Below are positions 36,611 through 45,223 of a stretch of 64,000 nt of DNA, piece after piece. The notes beneath the pieces are model-generated. The model saw nothing but the letters and a program-made list of their open reading frames with translations. It was not told the origin of the DNA and did no database searches. Each line of letters begins with the position of its first letter. Position 1 is the first letter of the stretch. The translations under genes were made by a program, and so were the position numbers. The stretch is taken from positions 842 to 64,841 of the forward strand of contig CALWDY010000014.1 of the NCBI GenBank assembly GCA_944376825.1, in the 5' to 3' direction. This stretch comes from an uncultured Clostridia bacterium (GTDB taxonomy: Bacteria > Bacillota > Clostridia > Christensenellales > UBA1242).

Positions 36611-36919
36611 TTATAGTTCGATTTTTATATCAACACCTGCAGGCAAATCTAATTTCATAAATGCATCAGTTTGCTTTGGTGAAGTTGGATACACATCTAT
36701 CATTCTTTTGTGTGTTCTAGATTCAAATTGTTCACGACTGTCTTTGTGTTTGTGTGGTGAACGAATAACAGTTATAACTTCCTTGTCTGTTGGAAGAGGA
36801 ACTGGACCCACCACTTTGGCACCACTCTTGTTTGCAGTGTTTATTATTCTTACACATGCTTGGTCAAGAAGTGTATGGTCGTAAGATTTTAGTTTGATTC
36901 TAATTTTTTGTGTTGCCAT
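36611..36919 (-). CDS. rpsJ: 30S ribosomal protein S10
   Basis: [27 protein letters not shown]..; AGGAGG RBS; first gene of the operon. Confidence 0.97.
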
Positions 36920-37441: not shown

Positions 37442-37468
37442 CAAAAAAAGCAGGCGTTTACGCCTACT
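37442..37468 (-). terminator. First of two tandem terminators after the exported-protein operon
   Basis: Minus strand AGTAGGCG-TAAA-CGCCTGCT followed by TTTTTTTG. Confidence 0.75.
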
Positions 37469-37535: not shown

Positions 37536-38108
37536 TTACTTAGCATCAAATAAGATATTAATTGGCAAACTAAAATTTCCCGATGCATTTGTTGTTGCAT
37601 CATCAAGCCCTATATAATAAACCAAATCTAATGGTTTTGAAATTGTAACCACCCCCGCAGTAGGACTAACAATAAATGTATTTACTGGTTTATTTGTTAT
37701 TGGTACTGGGGCAGCCGTAACAGTTCCTGTTTTATTTATTGTTGAAATTGTTACAACAATTTTATATGCAAACGATGTATTAAATTGCAATGTTTGCAAA
37801 TTCGCAAAACCCTCTTCACTGTTAATTACATTTGTGCTTGTGTCATAAGAAAACCAAGTTTGCGCTTTACCAAAAGTTTGCCAAGCAGAATCGCCTGCCG
37901 AAACCACCGAACTTTCTGTGTGCTTAACATTTGGGTCAAGTATATACATTTGCGTACTCACACCAACAAGCGCATTGCTTACCGTGTAAGTTAGTGTGCC
38001 ACTAACAGTGTAAGACACGCTTGACGCCGCATAAACACCAAATGCTAGCATCGAAATTGCCAAGCAAAATGAAGCAATTGTAACAAACAATTTAACTTTC
38101 TTTTTCAT
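37536..38108 (-). CDS. Exported beta-rich protein A, SipW-type (TasA-class) signal peptide candidate
   Basis: MKKKVKLFVTIASFCLAISMLAFGVYAA|SSVSYTVSGTL..; Thr/Val/Ser-rich mature part; paralog of next gene; GAGGGG RBS; adjacent to two SipW-like peptidases. Confidence 0.6.
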   Translation of the reverse strand: MKKKVKLFVTIASFCLAISMLAFGVYAASSVSYTVSGTLTYTVSNALVGVSTQMYILDPNVKHTESSVVSAGDSAWQTFGKAQTWFSYDTSTNVINSEEGFANLQTLQFNTSFAYKIVVTISTINKTGTVTAAPVPITNKPVNTFIVSPTAGVVTISKPLDLVYYIGLDDATTNASGNFSLPINILFDAK

Positions 38109-38167
38109 TTTGCCCCTCGCTTAGTTTTTGTAGTACAATTATATTATGCCTTCTACTCAACCAAAAA

Positions 38168-38749
38168 TTATTTTTTAAGAATTACAGTTAAAGTAAATCC
38201 AGCTCCCTCTGTCAAACTTTTTGTAACATCAGAAAGATATACATAGTATTCAAGAGTCACTTCCTTTGTTGTTTCATCTTCTGGTACTACAGGTACTGTT
38301 GCTGCATTGTCAGTTTTTGCCTGTACAACAAGGTTATCATCTTGTCCCTTTTTTACAATTTGTGTTCCTGCCAAATTAATAGCATTTGTTTTAGAATAGT
38401 TTGTAACTGTTACAACTATTTTAATTGCTGCATATTCTCCAAAAGTTGCAGCGATTGAATCACTTGGAGTATCTGATGTACTTCCATAGTTGTAATCATA
38501 ACCATTCAACGCTGGTGTTTCTGCTGTTTTGTTCCAAGTAACATTACCAGCTTGATCTGTTACATTTAGTAATGTATCGTTTGTATACCATTCAACATCA
38601 ATATCTGCGATAACGCCAGCAACTTCATATTCAACAGTACCGCTCAATGTATATGTAACTTGTGTTGCAGCATATACACCAAAAGCCATTAATGCAACTG
38701 CCAAACAAAGAGAAGCAATTGCTGAAAAAACTTTTATTTTTCTTTTCAT
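38168..38749 (-). CDS. Exported beta-rich protein B, SipW-type signal peptide candidate
   Basis: MKRKIKVFSAIASLCLAVALMAFGVYAA|TQVTYTLSGTV..; N-terminal ~45 aa nearly collinear with protein A; GGGAG RBS. Confidence 0.6.
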   Translation of the reverse strand: MKRKIKVFSAIASLCLAVALMAFGVYAATQVTYTLSGTVEYEVAGVIADIDVEWYTNDTLLNVTDQAGNVTWNKTAETPALNGYDYNYGSTSDTPSDSIAATFGEYAAIKIVVTVTNYSKTNAINLAGTQIVKKGQDDNLVVQAKTDNAATVPVVPEDETTKEVTLEYYVYLSDVTKSLTEGAGFTLTVILKK

Positions 38750-38943
38750 TTTAAATCTCCCTTTTTTATTTTTTTACAACCAAACATAGCAATCACACAT
38801 TTTTGTAAGAACGGCACCTTACTGTGTTACGCTTGTTTTGTTGTTTTTAAACTAGTTAAATTACTAGGCATTTTTATTATGCGTGAAAACGGCATTTTTA
38901 TCACACAAAAATATAAAATTTCATTTAACTAAGTTTCGATGTT

Positions 38944-38972
38944 ATTATATAAATTAAATAAGATTTGGTCAA
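38944..38972 (-). promoter_or_regulatory. Near-consensus sigma-A promoter of the exported-protein operon (leaves ~190-nt 5' UTR)
   Basis: Minus strand TTGACCaaatcttatttaatttaTATAAT (17-nt spacer). Confidence 0.75.
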
Positions 38973-39105
38973 ATAATTTTAAGCAATTTTAATCAATTTT
39001 TAATTTTTTTTTACACAATTATACAAAATACATTGTTTTATGCCACACTTATGCACCATATACTGAAAATTTAAAAAGCAATTCAAGCAAATTTAATAAA
39101 AAACC

Positions 39106-39139
39106 ACAAAAATACGCAATAGCAAATTGCTATTGCGTA
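39106..39139 (-). terminator. Terminator after SipW-like peptidase 1
   Basis: Perfect 12-bp stem TACGCAATAGCA-ATT-TGCTATTGCGTA followed by TTTTTG. Confidence 0.85.
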
Positions 39140-39143
39140 TTTT

Positions 39144-40166
39144 TTACTCCTTCACCTTTTCTGTATATATCAAATATGTCAATTCTTCATCAATATGTTT
39201 TATGTCCCACTTCCATTTTAAATGGTTCTTCCAAAAAAGCAAATATTCTCTTTTCCCTTTGTTTTTAAGAATTTCTATGCCTTCCTCTACATTATTTTTA
39301 AGAGTTTTTTGTTTTTTGTTTAAATTGGATTTAAACACCCACAAGTTATCAGCAAGTTCTTCCCTTTCTTCTTCTTCAACTTTCATATAATATATTATTT
39401 TGCAAACTTCTTCCATGTCGCCAGTTTTTATGAGTCTTTTTGCCTCTCTATCTTGCCAGTGCATTTCGCCTTTCATCAATTTTTTTTCAACATACATAAA
39501 ATTTATTTGTTCAATTAGAGCAAGCGACTGAAATATCACCAAAATTCCAAGCGGTATACAAACACAAACAACCATACCCATTGCACTTGAAAGCCATCTA
39601 ACTGCTCCTCTAAACCATGTTGGCGTTTCAATGTATTTACCCAAAACAAAGTCCGCTCTAACTTTTATGCTGTCAGGACTACCATTCGACGAACCTTTTG
39701 TTTCAAAAAATCTTGTTCCAGTTTCATCATAATATACATTTATAATTTCATGAAAAATCACCTTAAGTCCAGTTCCTTGCAAATCTTCAATTGTCAACCT
39801 ATCTTCTGGAATTGGTTTTGTTATCACAGGTTCTTGACTAACACTGTCTAGTTCCGTCAAAACCCTACCACTGTCAGCGGGATCTGTTTTTTGAAAAAAG
39901 GCAATAATATCACCTTTCCAAAGAGTGTTTGTGTCTGTTTTTTTGATAATAACATTGTCACCAATATTAAAGCCACTATTTTCCATACTACCAGATAATA
40001 TTCTTACAATTGAAACTCCAAAAAAAGAAGGGAGAGTGTCTGTTTTTGATTGAAAGAAAATAAGCAAACTTACGCAAAGTGAAATAATAACAATGGGAAA
40101 CAGCAAAATGTCTCCAATTTTTCCAAGCAAAGTATACGCAGTGTTTTTTGGTTTTTTATTTGTCAT
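39144..40166 (-). CDS. Archaeal/ER-type (S26B, SipW-like) signal peptidase with ~130-aa C-terminal cytoplasmic extension
   Basis: N-TM, VRILSGSME (Ser), GDIIAF, VIFHEII (His), ETKGSSNGSPD, second TM, then IEQINFMYVEKK..EEEREEL.. tail; start placed at MTNKKPKN (Met28 of track ORF; alt. 40247). Confidence 0.7.
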   Translation of the reverse strand: MTNKKPKNTAYTLLGKIGDILLFPIVIISLCVSLLIFFQSKTDTLPSFFGVSIVRILSGSMENSGFNIGDNVIIKKTDTNTLWKGDIIAFFQKTDPADSGRVLTELDSVSQEPVITKPIPEDRLTIEDLQGTGLKVIFHEIINVYYDETGTRFFETKGSSNGSPDSIKVRADFVLGKYIETPTWFRGAVRWLSSAMGMVVCVCIPLGILVIFQSLALIEQINFMYVEKKLMKGEMHWQDREAKRLIKTGDMEEVCKIIYYMKVEEEEREELADNLWVFKSNLNKKQKTLKNNVEEGIEILKNKGKREYLLFWKNHLKWKWDIKHIDEELTYLIYTEKVKE

Positions 40167-40244
40167 ATGGTTAGTGTAACACATACAAAAAAATTCTTGC
40201 AAACAATTTAACAAAACAAATAATTTATATGATTTAAAATATTG

Positions 40245-40270
40245 CAAAAAAATAAAGCCACGTGGCTTTA
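40245..40270 (-). terminator. Terminator overlapping the stop codon of SipW-like peptidase 2
   Basis: Palindrome TAAAGCCAC/GTGGCTTTA followed by TTTTTTT on the minus strand. Confidence 0.65.
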
Positions 40271-41902
40271 TTTTTTTGGTGGAATTTTTTTAGGTGGTTG
40301 TTTTTTTGCTGTACTTTCTTTATTTACATCAACCTTTTTAGGTGGCATTTTTTTAGTTTCAACTTTTGCATTGTTATTGATTTTTTTATCAGCATTTTGA
40401 TTGTTTGCCTTTCCCACCGTTTTTTGCAATGGTTTTTTTGGCGGTTTTTTAGGCTTTACACTTGATGTTTTTAGTTTTGTTTGCTTTTCATTTATTTCTT
40501 CTAGTTTATCATCAATAGATTTTTTAAGTTTTTCACCTTGTTTTACATCATATATATTTTTTTGATGTGCAAACTTATCTTCTTCTTTTGCTAACTCTTC
40601 TTTTTTAAGAATTTCATCTGCATCCATAAAATCATATGGATTTTCGCCATCACGATAGTTTTGATATTCTTTATTTAAAACATCAGCATATCTATCATTT
40701 TCTGCCTTTACCTGCGCTTGCGCAATTTGTTTTTTCATTCTCTTCGACTTAAACATATCAGACCAAGTTGAATAATATGGTTCCAAATTGTTTTCATCAT
40801 AAACATTTGTTGCAAGCTTGCTTGTTGCATAAATTTTTTGTTGTTTTTTATTTTGACTTTCTTCTAAACATCCCCACAAAAAGTTATACACATCCAATTT
40901 AAATTCACCGGGCATGACATCGTATAAGTATATTTTATCACTCTCTCGCATTTCAAGCCCAATGCTTGCCTTTGCGCACTCTTTTGTGTCAAAAGGAACT
41001 TCTCGATTTATAACCCTTTTTTCCAACAACAAATTGTTTATTTGCTCAATAACCGACAAAAGTTCAACCAAAACAACAATTGAAATTGGGAAAACAACTA
41101 GCAAAAGCATACCTTCCGTTGATGCACAGAAATTTATTAACGATGCCAACCAATCTGGCGTGCTCACATATTTACCAGCAACAAAATCTTCTCTAATTGC
41201 ATAACCATCAGTTGCAGAATTTGCCGTTCCTTTTGTCACATAAAATATTGTTCCAGAAGCATCTATTTTTATTTGAACAATTTGATGAAAATATACCGGA
41301 GTGTTTGCTTCTATAACCTCTTCAACAGTATCTCTATCCTCTGGCGCTTGTGTTTTTTCGTAATATTCTTTGTACTCTTCATAATAGAACTCTTCTCCAA
41401 CGCTTGCATTTATTATGGAATTATACAACTCTGTATTAAAAACAACCTCACCATTGTCATCTCTTACTGGACTATATCTATTTTCAACATAAACGGTTTG
41501 TCCATTTTCATCTGTAACAACATTACCGTTTTGATCTAACTTTTCAACTTGTTTTGTTTCAATTTGTGTTAAATTGAAAAGTTGAGCATTGTCTTCATCA
41601 TCATGATGATAATAAAAAGCAATAATATCTCCCACCTGATATGTTACATTTTTTGTTTGCACAACAGCAATGTCGCCTTTAACAAAATGGCGTTCTGCCT
41701 CTGGGCAATATTCACTCATACTGTTAGACAAAACCCTAACAAAAGTTTTTCCAAAAATTGGAGACACTAAATTATTGCTTCTTGCAACAAGCATAAAGAA
41801 ACTTGAAAAAAATGATATTATGATTATTGGATAAACAATAATATTTACAATATACTCCACAACTCTAAAAAACGTAGTTTTTCTTTTTACCTTCTTAACC
41901 AT
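40268..41902 (-). CDS. SipW-like S26B signal peptidase paralog, 544 aa, with acidic insert and ~260-aa C-terminal domain ending in PPKK repeats
   Basis: N-TM, VRVLSNSMSE, GDIIAFY, ~110-aa acidic insert, VYFHQIV, TKGTANSATD, second TM, IEQINNLLLEK.., tail KPKKPPKKPLQK..KKMPPKK..KKQPPKKIPPKK. Confidence 0.7.
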   Translation of the reverse strand: MVKKVKRKTTFFRVVEYIVNIIVYPIIIISFFSSFFMLVARSNNLVSPIFGKTFVRVLSNSMSEYCPEAERHFVKGDIAVVQTKNVTYQVGDIIAFYYHHDDEDNAQLFNLTQIETKQVEKLDQNGNVVTDENGQTVYVENRYSPVRDDNGEVVFNTELYNSIINASVGEEFYYEEYKEYYEKTQAPEDRDTVEEVIEANTPVYFHQIVQIKIDASGTIFYVTKGTANSATDGYAIREDFVAGKYVSTPDWLASLINFCASTEGMLLLVVFPISIVVLVELLSVIEQINNLLLEKRVINREVPFDTKECAKASIGLEMRESDKIYLYDVMPGEFKLDVYNFLWGCLEESQNKKQQKIYATSKLATNVYDENNLEPYYSTWSDMFKSKRMKKQIAQAQVKAENDRYADVLNKEYQNYRDGENPYDFMDADEILKKEELAKEEDKFAHQKNIYDVKQGEKLKKSIDDKLEEINEKQTKLKTSSVKPKKPPKKPLQKTVGKANNQNADKKINNNAKVETKKMPPKKVDVNKESTAKKQPPKKIPPKK

Positions 41903-41908
41903 GATTTT

Positions 41909-41937
41909 AGTATAACTTATTCTACAAAATTTTACAA
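41909..41937 (-). promoter_or_regulatory. Sigma-A-like promoter 6 nt from the ATG of SipW-like peptidase 2 (leaderless layout)
   Basis: Minus strand TTGTAAaattttgtagaataagtTATACTaaaatcATG; no SD. Confidence 0.6.
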
Positions 41938-42516: not shown

Positions 42517-42978
42517 TTATTTGTGATATGACACATTATTCATAATTGTAAAAGCCCTATAAATTTGTTCTAGCGCCATAACTCTAAAAAGTCTGTGAGG
42601 AAATGTCATTGCACTTAAACTAATTTTTTTATTTGCATTGTTTTTTAATGTATTTGACACCCCATAACTTCCACCAATAACAAAATTAATTTCGCTGTTA
42701 GTATTAAAAAATTTTTCAATAAAATTTGCAAATTTTTGGCTTGAAAAACTATCACCATCAACATCAAACAAAACAATGTTTGATGAATTTATTTTGTTTA
42801 AAATTTCTTTTGTTTCATTTTCAATTATTAGATCAATGTTACCCAATTCATTTTTTTCTTTTATTTCAATAATATTTATATTTGCAAAGCGAGAAATTCT
42901 CTTTTTATATTCCTCACACATTGAAATATATTCTTTATCCTTTAAATTGCCAACGCAATATAAATTTATTTTAAACAT
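42517..42978 (-). CDS. rlmH: 23S rRNA (pseudouridine1915-N3)-methyltransferase RlmH
   Basis: MFKINLYCVGNLKDKEY.., SPOUT C-terminus ..LSAMTFPHRLFRVMALEQIYRAF; ATG overlaps upstream stop (TAATG). Confidence 0.88.
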   Translation of the reverse strand: MFKINLYCVGNLKDKEYISMCEEYKKRISRFANINIIEIKEKNELGNIDLIIENETKEILNKINSSNIVLFDVDGDSFSSQKFANFIEKFFNTNSEINFVIGGSYGVSNTLKNNANKKISLSAMTFPHRLFRVMALEQIYRAFTIMNNVSYHK

Positions 42979-44087
42979 TATAAAATTCCCCAAATAAATG
43001 TAAATATGGTTATAAGGGCACTCATAAACAAATTTACATACAAAAATATGTTGTCTTTAAATGTTGGTTTATATAAATTTCCTCCCAAAATCGGCAAATT
43101 TTTAAAATTTACATTAAATATTCTTTTTGATCCAAGAATTTCTTTTGTAAACTCAATGTTGTCAACATCCTTTTTTTCTTCTTCAACCAAATCACCCATA
43201 ATTTCTTTTCTAAGTTCGCTTTTCATAATATCGTTGGCCATTTTGGTTAATTTTTGCACTCTTGTTTGCTTAAATAATTGAAGAGTTAAAAACATAAGCA
43301 GAAAAACAATTGTTATTATCAAAGCAAAAATGAGTATAATTGAAACAACAGGATTTCCACTTGCAAAAGAATTTAAAAAGTTGTTTATTGCAGTTCCTAT
43401 TGGCAAATTATGAAATAGCGAAAATCCCATTAAAGTGCTTACAGCATTATTTGTAAAATGCATAATCATTGTTGGATAAATACTGTCAGTTAAAAGAACA
43501 ACAAACCCGAAGAAAAAACCAATTATTGTTGCATAAAAGAATTGTTCGATATTAAGATGCATAAGTCCAAACAAAAGCCCACTTAAAAGAATTGCCTTTT
43601 TTGCCCCACTTTTTTTATAAACACTAAGAACCATTCCCCTATTTGCAACTTCTTCGCATATTCCAGGAAGAACACATGTGAAAATAAGTTCCAAAATTAA
43701 AAGCCAAACAGGATATGATTGCATAACAGAGCCAGATGTTTTTTCGTATCCTAAAAGTTTTAAAATAGCTGAAAAGAAGGTTGCAACAAAAATAGTTGCA
43801 AAATAAACCAACACGCCAATCAAAACAGAAAGCAAAACGGCTTTAAAATTTATTTTATGAAAACCGTACATGTCTAATGTTTGTTTTAACTTTTGTTTTC
43901 TTAAAAAAGAAAACAAAAACAAAGACAAGCAAAGCATTAGTCCAACTTGTATAACAAAATTAAGAACATAACCAACAACACCGCTAAGAGAGAAAGTCGC
44001 CGATATTATTCTTATAACAATAAACAAACCCAGTATTAAAAAATACACAAAATTACCATCAAAAATTTCACTTCTTTTCTTAAACAT
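42978..44087 (-). CDS. CPBP-family (CAAX/Abi) intramembrane glutamic protease 1
   Basis: Polytopic; EEVANRG, FGLMHLN, HFTNN motifs; long C-terminal extension. Confidence 0.8.
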   Translation of the reverse strand: MFKKRSEIFDGNFVYFLILGLFIVIRIISATFSLSGVVGYVLNFVIQVGLMLCLSLFLFSFLRKQKLKQTLDMYGFHKINFKAVLLSVLIGVLVYFATIFVATFFSAILKLLGYEKTSGSVMQSYPVWLLILELIFTCVLPGICEEVANRGMVLSVYKKSGAKKAILLSGLLFGLMHLNIEQFFYATIIGFFFGFVVLLTDSIYPTMIMHFTNNAVSTLMGFSLFHNLPIGTAINNFLNSFASGNPVVSIILIFALIITIVFLLMFLTLQLFKQTRVQKLTKMANDIMKSELRKEIMGDLVEEEKKDVDNIEFTKEILGSKRIFNVNFKNLPILGGNLYKPTFKDNIFLYVNLFMSALITIFTFIWGIL

Positions 44088-44105: not shown

Positions 44106-45101
44106 CTATGCACCAAAACCCGAAATTAAATCTACAACCCAAACAAAAATTGCAACAAAGGCGCCTGCCCATAAAAAAATGTTATACTTTTTATTAATGT
44201 TTGTGTTCAATTTTGGCAAATCTTCTATTATAATATCACTTTTTGTTTCTGTATATGAATCTTTTTTTTGTTTTTTTAATAAAAATTTTATTATTAAAGC
44301 AATTAAAAGTATTGCCGTTATGCAATAAGTTATTGCAAAAACCACCGACTTAACCGACAAAACAAACTCTGTTGGTTGCAAATTTTTTACTGTTGACACA
44401 TAAGTTACAACAATAACAATTGCATTATTTAAAAAATGAATAATCATAGGATAAATAATATTGTTTGTTTTAAGCATAACAAATGCCAAAACTGCCCCCA
44501 CTATAAATGGATATACAGTTTGTTCAATATTTAAGTGCATAAGTGAAAACAATATTGCACTACCAAAAATTGCCCACCACTTGTTATAGTCTTTTAAACC
44601 ATTAAATATAACCCCTCTAAACAACAATTCTTCAAATATAGCAGGAAGAATAGCCATTGCAAAAATCATTAAAAAAAAGATTCCAATGTTATCTATTTTA
44701 ACAGGCAAGTCGTTTTGCACTTTAAAGCCAAGTTCCTTTAAAACTGCTTCAAACATATTCACAATATCAGTAAAGCCAAAAGTACAAATAAATGCCAAAA
44801 CAACGCACAAAACAATGTTTAAAACGCTTATTTTACTTTTTATATTCAATGTATTTACCCAATTTATTTTTGCTTTCTTGTTGTATATAAAAAACAAACT
44901 ACTAAAAGCAATTGGAGATATAAACAGTGAAAAATATATAAACACTTGGTTGTTTGACAAATCATCTATATTTGCGCCTAGCAACATAGCTATAATAGTT
45001 GCAAGAACCATATAAATTATACTTACAACTGACGGAAAAATTATTGATCCAAAAAAGCAAAAACCTGCATCATATTTGTTATATTTTATTTTTTTATCCA
45101 T
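44106..45101 (-). CDS. CPBP-family (CAAX/Abi) intramembrane glutamic protease 2
   Basis: Polytopic; EELLFRG, FSLMHLN, HFLNN; start at MDKKIKYNK (alt. 45140); TTGTGA-16-TATAAT-7-ATG, no SD. Confidence 0.78.
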   Translation of the reverse strand: MDKKIKYNKYDAGFCFFGSIIFPSVVSIIYMVLATIIAMLLGANIDDLSNNQVFIYFSLFISPIAFSSLFFIYNKKAKINWVNTLNIKSKISVLNIVLCVVLAFICTFGFTDIVNMFEAVLKELGFKVQNDLPVKIDNIGIFFLMIFAMAILPAIFEELLFRGVIFNGLKDYNKWWAIFGSAILFSLMHLNIEQTVYPFIVGAVLAFVMLKTNNIIYPMIIHFLNNAIVIVVTYVSTVKNLQPTEFVLSVKSVVFAITYCITAILLIALIIKFLLKKQKKDSYTETKSDIIIEDLPKLNTNINKKYNIFLWAGAFVAIFVWVVDLISGFGA

Positions 45102-45223
45102 GGCATATATTATACATATAAAACGCAAAATCACAAGCATTTAAAAAATAAAATCGCACTTTTTTGATTTTGTAGTGTAAAAATCATACTCACAATGCGA
45201 TTAATAAATATTATATCCATAAA

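Follow-up and report, generated by a model that had tools for sequence, protein, structure and literature searches.

We analysed a 64,000-nt stretch of DNA from an uncultured Clostridia bacterium (GenBank assembly GCA_944376825.1, contig CALWDY010000014.1), which is called the window here, and in it a candidate SipW-type signal-peptidase/cargo module. Coordinates are positions within the window; L0xx stands for loci fetched from relatives and P0xxx for database proteins. Four open reading frames (ORFs) on the minus strand occupy positions 37536-41902. pepA (40268-41902, 544 aa) and pepB (39144-40166, 340 aa from its ATG) are paralogous, enlarged signal peptidases of the predicted endoplasmic reticulum (ER)/archaeal type, and share 26% identity (E 4e-35) that covers both the catalytic region and the region after the second transmembrane (TM) segment. 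The pepB frame stays open further 5' to a TTG at 40247, and public data call the 340-aa product. small1 (38168-38749, 193 aa) consists of a signal peptide and a mature domain of about 166 aa, predicted to be a beta sandwich. Its paralog small2 (37536-38108, 190 aa) carries the same signal peptide, and the two proteins are 31% identical (E 1e-22). small2 starts 59 nt 3' of small1 with no terminator between them. A preliminary description of this DNA had reported the four genes, the paralogy of the small ones and their co-transcription layout, which agree with the ORFs, the alignment and the spacing given here.

The same genes are found together in relatives. The close clade comprised 21 loci (L001-L021) from metagenome-assembled genomes (MAGs) that carry the label 'uncultured Clostridia' or 'uncultured Christensenella sp.'; their pepA identities are 46-76%. 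pepA and pepB were followed by one or two small genes at all of these loci (for small2 orthologs, L001 11820-12386 and L021 9814-10380) except L020, whose contig ends inside pepB. The survey of relatives proposed in the preliminary description thus found the four-gene unit co-conserved. Counting all 38 loci that were fetched with a peptidase query, 37 had a family member next to the peptidase gene. Another 16 loci came from more distant MAGs of Clostridia, Lachnospiraceae and Acholeplasmatales. At each of the 16, a single SipW-like gene of 194-519 aa had 1-3 small homologs directly upstream. In Acholeplasmatales the peptidase gene is also followed by a 415-442-aa family member, giving the order small, peptidase, larger member. 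Cargo and peptidase were the only gene clusters common to all 16 distant loci, and the flanks were unrelated housekeeping genes (comEC, holA, der, plsY, spoIVA and glnA).

Some relatives encode a larger cargo protein of 604-621 aa directly after the small gene (L016 9588-11402, L017 4737-6599 and L019 9513-11378). It starts with the family signal and first strand and continues with BspA-type leucine-rich repeats (LRRs; LRR_5, E 6e-30). These LRR-bearing members are candidates for an adhesin or a tip component.

Both large proteins carry the motifs of S26B peptidases. Direct reading gave LSNSM (S61), GDIIAF, FHQIV (H206) and TKGTANSATD (D232) for pepA, and LSGSME (S60), GDIIAF, FHEII (H139) and TKGSSNGSPD (D165) for pepB. 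The catalytic residue is a His in both, unlike the Lys of P-type enzymes. The family model TIGR02228 (cut-off 51.85 bits) matched pepB at 60.3 bits, and related single peptidases scored 53-60 bits. pepA reached 39.2 bits (E 5.9e-10), which is below the cut-off because its 108-aa insert splits the match in two; the match of pepB is also broken into two stretches by its insert. The TIGR02228 check suggested earlier was therefore passed by pepB only. The Pfam scan gave no match for pepA or pepB, and both missed the threshold of the SipW equivalog model NF046067 (61.8 bits for pepB and 40.4 bits for pepA, cut-off 190 bits). pepA and pepB are homologs but not orthologs of SipW.

In an alignment of 27 family sequences, S61, M62, G91, D92, F205 and H206 were invariant. 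The profile of this alignment reached human SEC11A and SEC11C in the PDB (7P2P and 7P2Q; E 0.0015 and 0.0057). In the profile alignment with 7P2P, the VLSxSM, the FH and the last Asp of TKGDNNAVDD of SEC11A aligned with S61, H206 and D232. The family profile was required for this result, as phmmer with pepB alone found no match in the PDB. The motifs xSxSM and FH[QE][IV] were kept in 21/21 pepA orthologs and in every pepB ortholog. A regular expression for G[TS]xN...[DE] hit all orthologs except the pepB of L008, and the acidic residue was D or E. Judged by these residues, both paralogs look catalytically competent. The S26B-type signature described earlier is thus borne out by motifs, by TIGR02228 and by the SEC11 profile, with the Ser/His dyad present in both proteins and kept in the orthologs. 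These results point to pepA and pepB as SipW/SEC11-type (ER/archaeal-type, MEROPS S26B) signal peptidases.

Hydropathy analysis gave two TM segments for each peptidase. In pepA, TM1 lies at about aa 11-40 and TM2 at about aa 258-288, and an acidic extracellular insert takes up about aa 98-200. In pepB, TM2 lies at about aa 191-221 and the insert is 47 aa long. If the Lys-rich N-terminus lies in the cytoplasm, the catalytic domain would be outside the cell and the part after TM2 would be cytoplasmic. The motif IEQIN stands at the cytoplasmic end of TM2 in both proteins (pepA 285-289 and pepB 218-222). The gap from GDIIAF to FH is about 108 aa in pepA (about 100-108 aa in its orthologs), 47 aa in pepB and 106 aa in one pepB subclade, but only 19-23 aa in the shortest related peptidases (194-262 aa). 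Asp and Glu make up 25% of the pepA insert. PAS-fold matches in this insert (E 0.03-0.09) were far below cut-offs and were treated as noise. The sizes of 340 and 544 aa, the external inserts and the additions after TM2 that both open with IEQIN had been noted before and are confirmed here.

The part after TM2 begins with an all-helical domain. In pepA it covers aa 280-425 (40628-41065, minus strand), starts at IEQIN and has seven helices, and pepB carries the same domain at about aa 214-338. AlphaFold2 with a 26-sequence alignment folded this domain of about 140 aa confidently into seven helices (predicted local distance difference test score, pLDDT, 92.4; predicted template modelling score, pTM, 0.86). 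The search of the model with Foldseek, which the preliminary description had recommended, found no fold match in the PDB (best E 1.5, TM-score 0.31). With phmmer, only 40 proteins among 1.84 billion cluster representatives matched the domain at E <= 1e-3. A SipW-type domain was also present in 29/32 of the cytoplasmic-domain proteins that were checked. The other three include P0180, an N-terminally truncated fragment, and P0177, which was rejected as a repetitive false positive. A hidden Markov model of the domain matched both paralogs at every close locus (L001-L021; E 1e-24 to 1e-36 on pepB orthologs) and no distant peptidase. By this modelling and these searches the domain is an independent seven-helix fold, a clade-specific invention almost confined to such peptidases.

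The cytoplasmic enlargement of SipW-like peptidases is real and recurrent. SipW itself ends in a cytoplasmic segment of 20 residues, which has a role of its own (PMC8767453). The preliminary description had proposed that this signalling tail expanded into full domains; descent from the 20-residue tail is unsupported, and the domain is an independent, clade-restricted fold. Behind it, pepA has a Lys-rich low-complexity tail (aa 426-544, 40271-40627, minus strand) with PPKK repeats, whose length and sequence vary among orthologs. Lys accounts for 34/124 of residues 421-544, and ortholog matches cover only the first 76% of the pepA query. The distant long peptidases have unrelated K/A/P/T-rich low-complexity tails instead of the folded domain. 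Polycationic tails, such as AKPA/TAKP repeats, occur in several lineages (L022 6007-7404, L026 3128-4687 and L023 6001-7203), and P0174 has N-terminal KKRGRPKK repeats that resemble AT-hooks. It is our guess that such tails may bind the ribosome, nucleic acid or anionic lipid. The 775-aa protein P0162 was considered as a fusion of two peptidases, which would have been Rosetta-stone evidence for a heterodimer, and was rejected. Its DNA (L038 4050-6377) holds separate ORFs of 370 and 403 aa, split by a TGA that had been read as Trp, a genetic-code or gene-calling artefact.

The signal peptides of small1 (38669-38749) and small2 (38028-38108), both on the minus strand, are the same 27 aa long with a predicted cleavage site VYA|A. 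A word-seeded search of 5.8 billion clusters found 245 homologs, many of which match over the first ~45 residues only, at 60-89% identity; the signal statistics come from the 120 listed homologs. The signal was exactly 27 residues in 114/120 of these. Its consensus is MKKKVKLFTTIASLCLAVALMAFGVYA, with positions 11-25 conserved at 93-100%, and the family motif is MK[KR]K.KLF..IASLCLAVALMAFGVYA. Mean pairwise identity was 86% in the signal versus 31% in the mature part, although the 86% is inflated to an unknown degree, since a word-seeded search favours proteins that share the signal. Full-length homologs showed the same contrast between signal and mature part, and 14/28 N-terminal positions were invariant. 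The signals of small1 and small2 differ at synonymous sites, which indicates that the constraint acts on the peptide. The Cys at position 15, in the middle of the hydrophobic core, was invariant in 120/120 homologs (codons 38705-38707 in small1 and 38064-38066 in small2). Its surroundings (ASLC and then 12 further hydrophobic residues) are not those of a lipobox.

We compared the family with TasA using hhalign; the TasA query was identical to PDB 8AUR over mature residues 28-261. Only the signals aligned, over 28 columns at 39% identity (Prob 24%), and their cleavage sites fell in register (G-x-aromatic-A|A). Cleavage is likely at VYA|A after a 27-aa signal, because the register with TasA and the -3/-1 rule both favour it. 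Cleavage after VYAA, as proposed before, would break this rule.

Our preferred reading is that the locus is a dedicated SipW-type signal-peptidase/cargo module, to which we give a probability of about 0.65. It draws on the identity of the peptidases, the highly conserved signal and its register with TasA, the linkage of peptidase and cargo genes in distant lineages, the LRR-bearing cargo and the folded cytoplasmic domain confined to these peptidases. small1 and small2 would be made in quantity, as their near-consensus conserved promoter, strong Shine-Dalgarno (SD) sequence and structured leader suggest, and would be exported via Sec by the family-specific 27-residue signal peptide. pepA and pepB would be membrane proteins with the N-terminus inside, in the order TM1, external catalytic domain, TM2 and cytoplasmic domain, and would use a Ser-His-Asp/Glu triad resembling that of SEC11 and SipW to cut the signal at VYA|A. 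This cleavage would set free beta-sandwich proteins, about 165 aa long, at the cell surface. We infer that pepA and pepB, and not a general LepB-type enzyme, process small1 and small2, and the two peptidases may act together. The signal is nearly invariant over its full length, the cytoplasmic n-region and the mid-membrane Cys included, possibly because it is read by the TM helices and the cytoplasmic domain of the peptidases.

Several results weigh against the dedicated-module reading, beginning with the inflation of the signal identity given above. Lone family members with an identical signal lie far from peptidase genes (L039/L040 6001-6648 and L041 6001-6861). Their mature domains differ, and those of L039/L040 stand between priA and def, beside a divergent XRE-type helix-turn-helix gene. 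At the tandem-peptidase locus L038, no cargo gene adjoins the peptidases before the short contig ends. The overall picture is of a signal class shared by several substrates in each genome, of which one or more are usually encoded next to the peptidase. A search with a SipS query detected no LepB-type gene in the window of ~64 kb or in 38 short loci, which is a small DNA sample. The remaining points concern the exported proteins and are given with the comparison to TasA below.

These results also bear on another explanation, in which pepA and pepB are the general housekeeping type I signal peptidases of the lineage and the small proteins are abundant secreted or surface proteins that share a core-genome neighbourhood. 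The module does stand among housekeeping genes here (L9, HtrA, RlmH, TadA and the S10 operon) and in other lineages (holA, der, plsY and glnA), and genes for cargo with this signal are also found at other places in the genomes. The missing LepB gene would also suit this explanation, but is uninformative in so small a sample. The adjacency of cargo and peptidase persists across lineages whose flanks are otherwise unrelated, and housekeeping peptidases would leave the near-invariant 27-aa signal unexplained. We consider this explanation unlikely.

The mature parts of small1 and small2 belong to no known family that we searched. Neither protein matched a Pfam or NCBIfam family. Peptidase_M73 (PF12389) matched none of 39 diverse family members and none of the window proteins; among the 39, only scattered weak matches to immunoglobulin-like (Ig-like) domains appeared (DUF11, DUF3426 and DUF1573). 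The model of SipW-cognate signals, TIGR04088 (cognate_SipW, 34 positions, cut-off 19 bits), did not match small1, small2 or P0072 at E <= 10, and these three were also unmatched by TIGR04090 (BsaA family) and TIGR04089. In the same run, TasA as a positive control matched TIGR04088 (38 bits), TIGR04090 and TIGR04089. The model searches recommended in the preliminary description were thus all negative on the small proteins. Its placement of their signals in the SipW-cognate class keeps the TasA register as support, without a TIGR04088 match. Comparison of the mature profiles with hhalign (117 sequences versus 105 TasA-family sequences) gave Prob 0.17%. We therefore rejected homology of the cargo to TasA at the sequence level.

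AlphaFold2 predicted a signal helix and an eight-strand beta sandwich at moderate confidence (pLDDT 75.6, pTM 0.70), closed and self-contained, with no obviously free donor strand. The best Foldseek matches in the PDB were FimA-type pilins (TM-score 0.25-0.35, prob <= 0.69), and the TasA structures 5OF1 and 8AUR were absent from the top 50. A likeness to FimA or Gram-positive pilin folds at TM-scores of 0.35 or less was too weak for use and was set aside. The mature alignment of 117 sequences had no conserved K/N/E columns that could form an isopeptide triad (Lys/Asn/Glu), and no sortase motif or wall-binding domain was found in small1 or small2. The N-terminal mature strand is moderately conserved, with alternating hydrophobic residues. 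'New cargo family' is a fair description of the small proteins by sequence, because they lack the TasA start, as had been noticed earlier, and are not detectably TasA-like.

The cargo could still truly belong to the TasA/BsaA/camelysin superfamily and have diverged strongly. It would then be a jellyroll subunit that polymerises by N-terminal donor-strand exchange and whose sequence similarity has eroded past detection. The gene layout and the peptidase type fit tapA-sipW-tasA and sipW-bsaABC (PMC9674648, PMC11580942), the signal peptide is in the TasA register, and the BsaA family is called widespread and very divergent in the paper on BsaA. By inspection, a stretch T-[FY]-x-x-S-G-T-[VL] after the cleavage site resembles ATFASGTLDL of TasA. 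However, about 8 residues precede the SGT stretch here versus 13 in TasA, whose donor strand is residues 28-38. TasA is matched by the three TIGR models that miss the cargo, and the PF12389 search, the mature profiles and the Foldseek ranking are likewise negative. This makes a diverged TasA member quite unlikely in our view.

Returning to the dedicated module, we asked what its released proteins might form. Assembly into a surface fibre or layer is possible, at somewhat less than an even chance. The idea is indirect: it draws on the analogy to TasA and BsaA, on paralogous major and minor subunits, the LRR members, the signs of high expression and the N-terminal strand. Against it, the cargo did not match the models of the known fibre families (TasA and BsaA). 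A more specific version, which we regard as doubtful, is a so far undescribed sorting system of uncultured gut Clostridia, in which a hetero-oligomeric peptidase pair would read the whole signal with its new cytoplasmic helical domain and its TM helices, and Ig-like subunits would polymerise into a new class of Gram-positive surface fibre or layer unrelated to TasA, with LRR members as adhesins. It is very improbable that a second function of the conserved N-terminal segment, as a retained membrane anchor or a released bioactive or pheromone-like peptide, drives the invariance instead of peptidase recognition. In favour of such a function, all 27 residues are conserved, including the Cys in the hydrophobic core, and a syntenic pair of CPBP/Rce1-like intramembrane proteases is encoded a few genes upstream. 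Against it, these protease genes are set apart by rlmH and tadA and absent from distant loci, and a canonical -3/-1 site (V-Y-A) is present in the c-region.

The biofilm fibres that have been studied best in Gram-positive bacteria, TasA and BsaA, have SipW-type peptidases as their gatekeepers. The locus resembles tapA-sipW-tasA of Bacillus subtilis in that the genes for a putative S26B peptidase (Ser-His-Asp triad) and for its candidate cargo are neighbours, and in that the cargo consists of two paralogous proteins whose signals end in G-x-aromatic-A|A in the TasA register. Among the relatives, those of the Acholeplasmatales have cargo genes on both sides of the peptidase gene, as in tapA-sipW-tasA. 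Like SipW, the peptidases have a cytoplasmic C-terminal segment. In contrast, there are two paralogous peptidases of 340 and 544 aa here instead of one of ~190 aa, each with an external insert (47-108 aa) and a folded cytoplasmic domain of ~140 aa instead of the 20-residue tail, and with G[TS]xN in place of GDNN. The cargo, unlike TasA, is not detectably TasA-like and fails TIGR04088. The sipW-bsaA-bsaB-bsaC system of Clostridium perfringens likewise has paralogous small secreted proteins, of which BsaABC are matrix subunits, and a larger accessory secreted protein, to which the LRR protein with the same signal in some relatives can be compared. It differs in that the cargo here is unmatched by TIGR04090, has no conserved N-E-K isopeptide triad and is accompanied by no vWA protein, and in the enlarged tandem peptidases, as in the comparison with Bacillus SipW.

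SEC11A, SEC11C and the archaeal Sec11-type enzymes share the catalytic signature with pepA and pepB, with aligned Ser/His/Asp positions and with pepB above the TIGR02228 cut-off. pepA and pepB are bacterial, however, and have a second TM segment, large inserts and the cytoplasmic domain; accessory subunits of the signal peptidase complex are not evident, and the link is to specific cargo instead of general secretion. The sortase/LPXTG, prepilin peptidase/class III signal and exosortase/PEP-CTERM pairs also have a short conserved sorting sequence on divergent paralogous surface proteins and a dedicated membrane protease with several substrates scattered per genome. Unlike in those pairs, the signal here is an N-terminal Sec-type one, which a type I peptidase of the ER type would cleave off at the C-terminal end of the signal, and there is no sign of covalent attachment or transpeptidation.

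The kind of system is known, and the peptidase architecture and the cargo are new. No curated Pfam or NCBIfam model matched the cargo family or the cytoplasmic domain, none of the checked cluster members is named in the public collection, and full-text literature searching found no paper that ties SipW to these lineages. The logic of a dedicated ER-type peptidase with cognate cargo has apparently been re-used in gut lineages that are abundant but uncultured (Christensenella-like Clostridia, other Clostridia and Acholeplasmatales). The cargo there is unrelated, and the peptidases have acquired a novel cytoplasmic domain. If this is true, it would provide a new sorting signal by which surface proteomes could be annotated in gut MAGs, a new domain family that couples the cytoplasm to an extracytoplasmic protease, and possibly a new class of fibre or adhesin relevant to host colonisation.

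The module lies in a region with ~30% G+C throughout and no compositional break. Read in the direction of transcription, the upstream genes encode L9, a metallo-beta-lactamase-fold protein, HtrA, a LysR regulator, two CPBP/Rce1-like membrane proteases, RlmH and TadA. The S10 ribosomal operon is downstream, with its first position at 36919. The placement before S10, emphasised in the preliminary description, is true here and is incidental or lineage-specific: S10 is the neighbour in the closest relatives only, and rpoB/rpoC follow the same module in L003/L004 (50-54% identity; P0138 53%). The CPBP/Rce1-like proteases are tandem paralogs on the minus strand (42978-44087 and 44106-45140), with HtrA further upstream, and in L001 and L003 the pair and HtrA keep their synteny with the module. 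We rejected the two proteases as a part of the module, as their synteny is confined to the close clade, rlmH and tadA intervene, and they are absent at distant loci.

Expression signals were read on the minus strand. Promoter-like sites as a class were not enriched in this AT-rich region (35 found versus 28.6 expected), so we relied on conservation and not on pattern matches. Before pepA there is a promoter-like element TTGTAA-17-TATACT (41909-41937), whose -10 box stops 6 nt short of the ATG, and an SD sequence is missing; this geometry is kept in L001, L005, L006, L021 and L003. The weak element before pepB, TTGCAA-18-TACACT (40173-40202), also ends 6 nt before the ATG with no SD sequence. 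It scores 8/12, below the scan threshold, and its geometry is kept in L001, L005, L015, L021 and L006. A -10 box 6 nt from the ATG together with the missing SD suggests that the pepA and pepB mRNAs are leaderless. Relatives with 55-76% protein identity keep this leaderless geometry. The cargo genes, in contrast, carry strong SDs. A terminator-like hairpin overlaps the pepA stop codon (40245-40278) and another follows pepB (39108-39144; 17 pairs, then a T run), the stem of which is kept with changes in relatives (alignment columns 17-39). An own promoter and terminator for each peptidase, as described earlier, is therefore supported by both hairpins and by the pepA element, and less so by the pepB element.

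The cargo pair has two promoter-like elements, GTGGCA-17-TATAAT with an extended -10 TG (39046-39018) and TTGACC-17-TATAAT (38972-38944), the latter ~188 nt before small1. One of the elements has 11/12 matches and the other 10/12, and both are kept in 4/5 relatives. A structured 5' leader of ~188 nt (38750-38937) precedes small1 and is followed by the strong SD AAGGGAGA. The leaders of relatives align with 72% column identity. The leader has a minimum free energy of -38.7 kcal/mol and folds better than shuffles (z = -2.79), and pairing in one hairpin (columns 351-370) survives two double substitutions in L006. Two hairpins display UGCCGUU (38883-38894 and 38805-38816), a motif that is not enriched elsewhere in the window. 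The Rfam scan of the window, including the leader, gave nothing at gathering thresholds. small2 is followed by two successive terminator-like hairpins (37425-37401 and 37465-37452), so that the promoter, the ~190-nt leader and the double terminator claimed for the substrate pair were all found. The two hairpins share a core (GGCGTAAACGCC and AGGCGTAAAACGCTTGC), and the one at 37452-37465 is palindromic and could terminate transcription on either strand.

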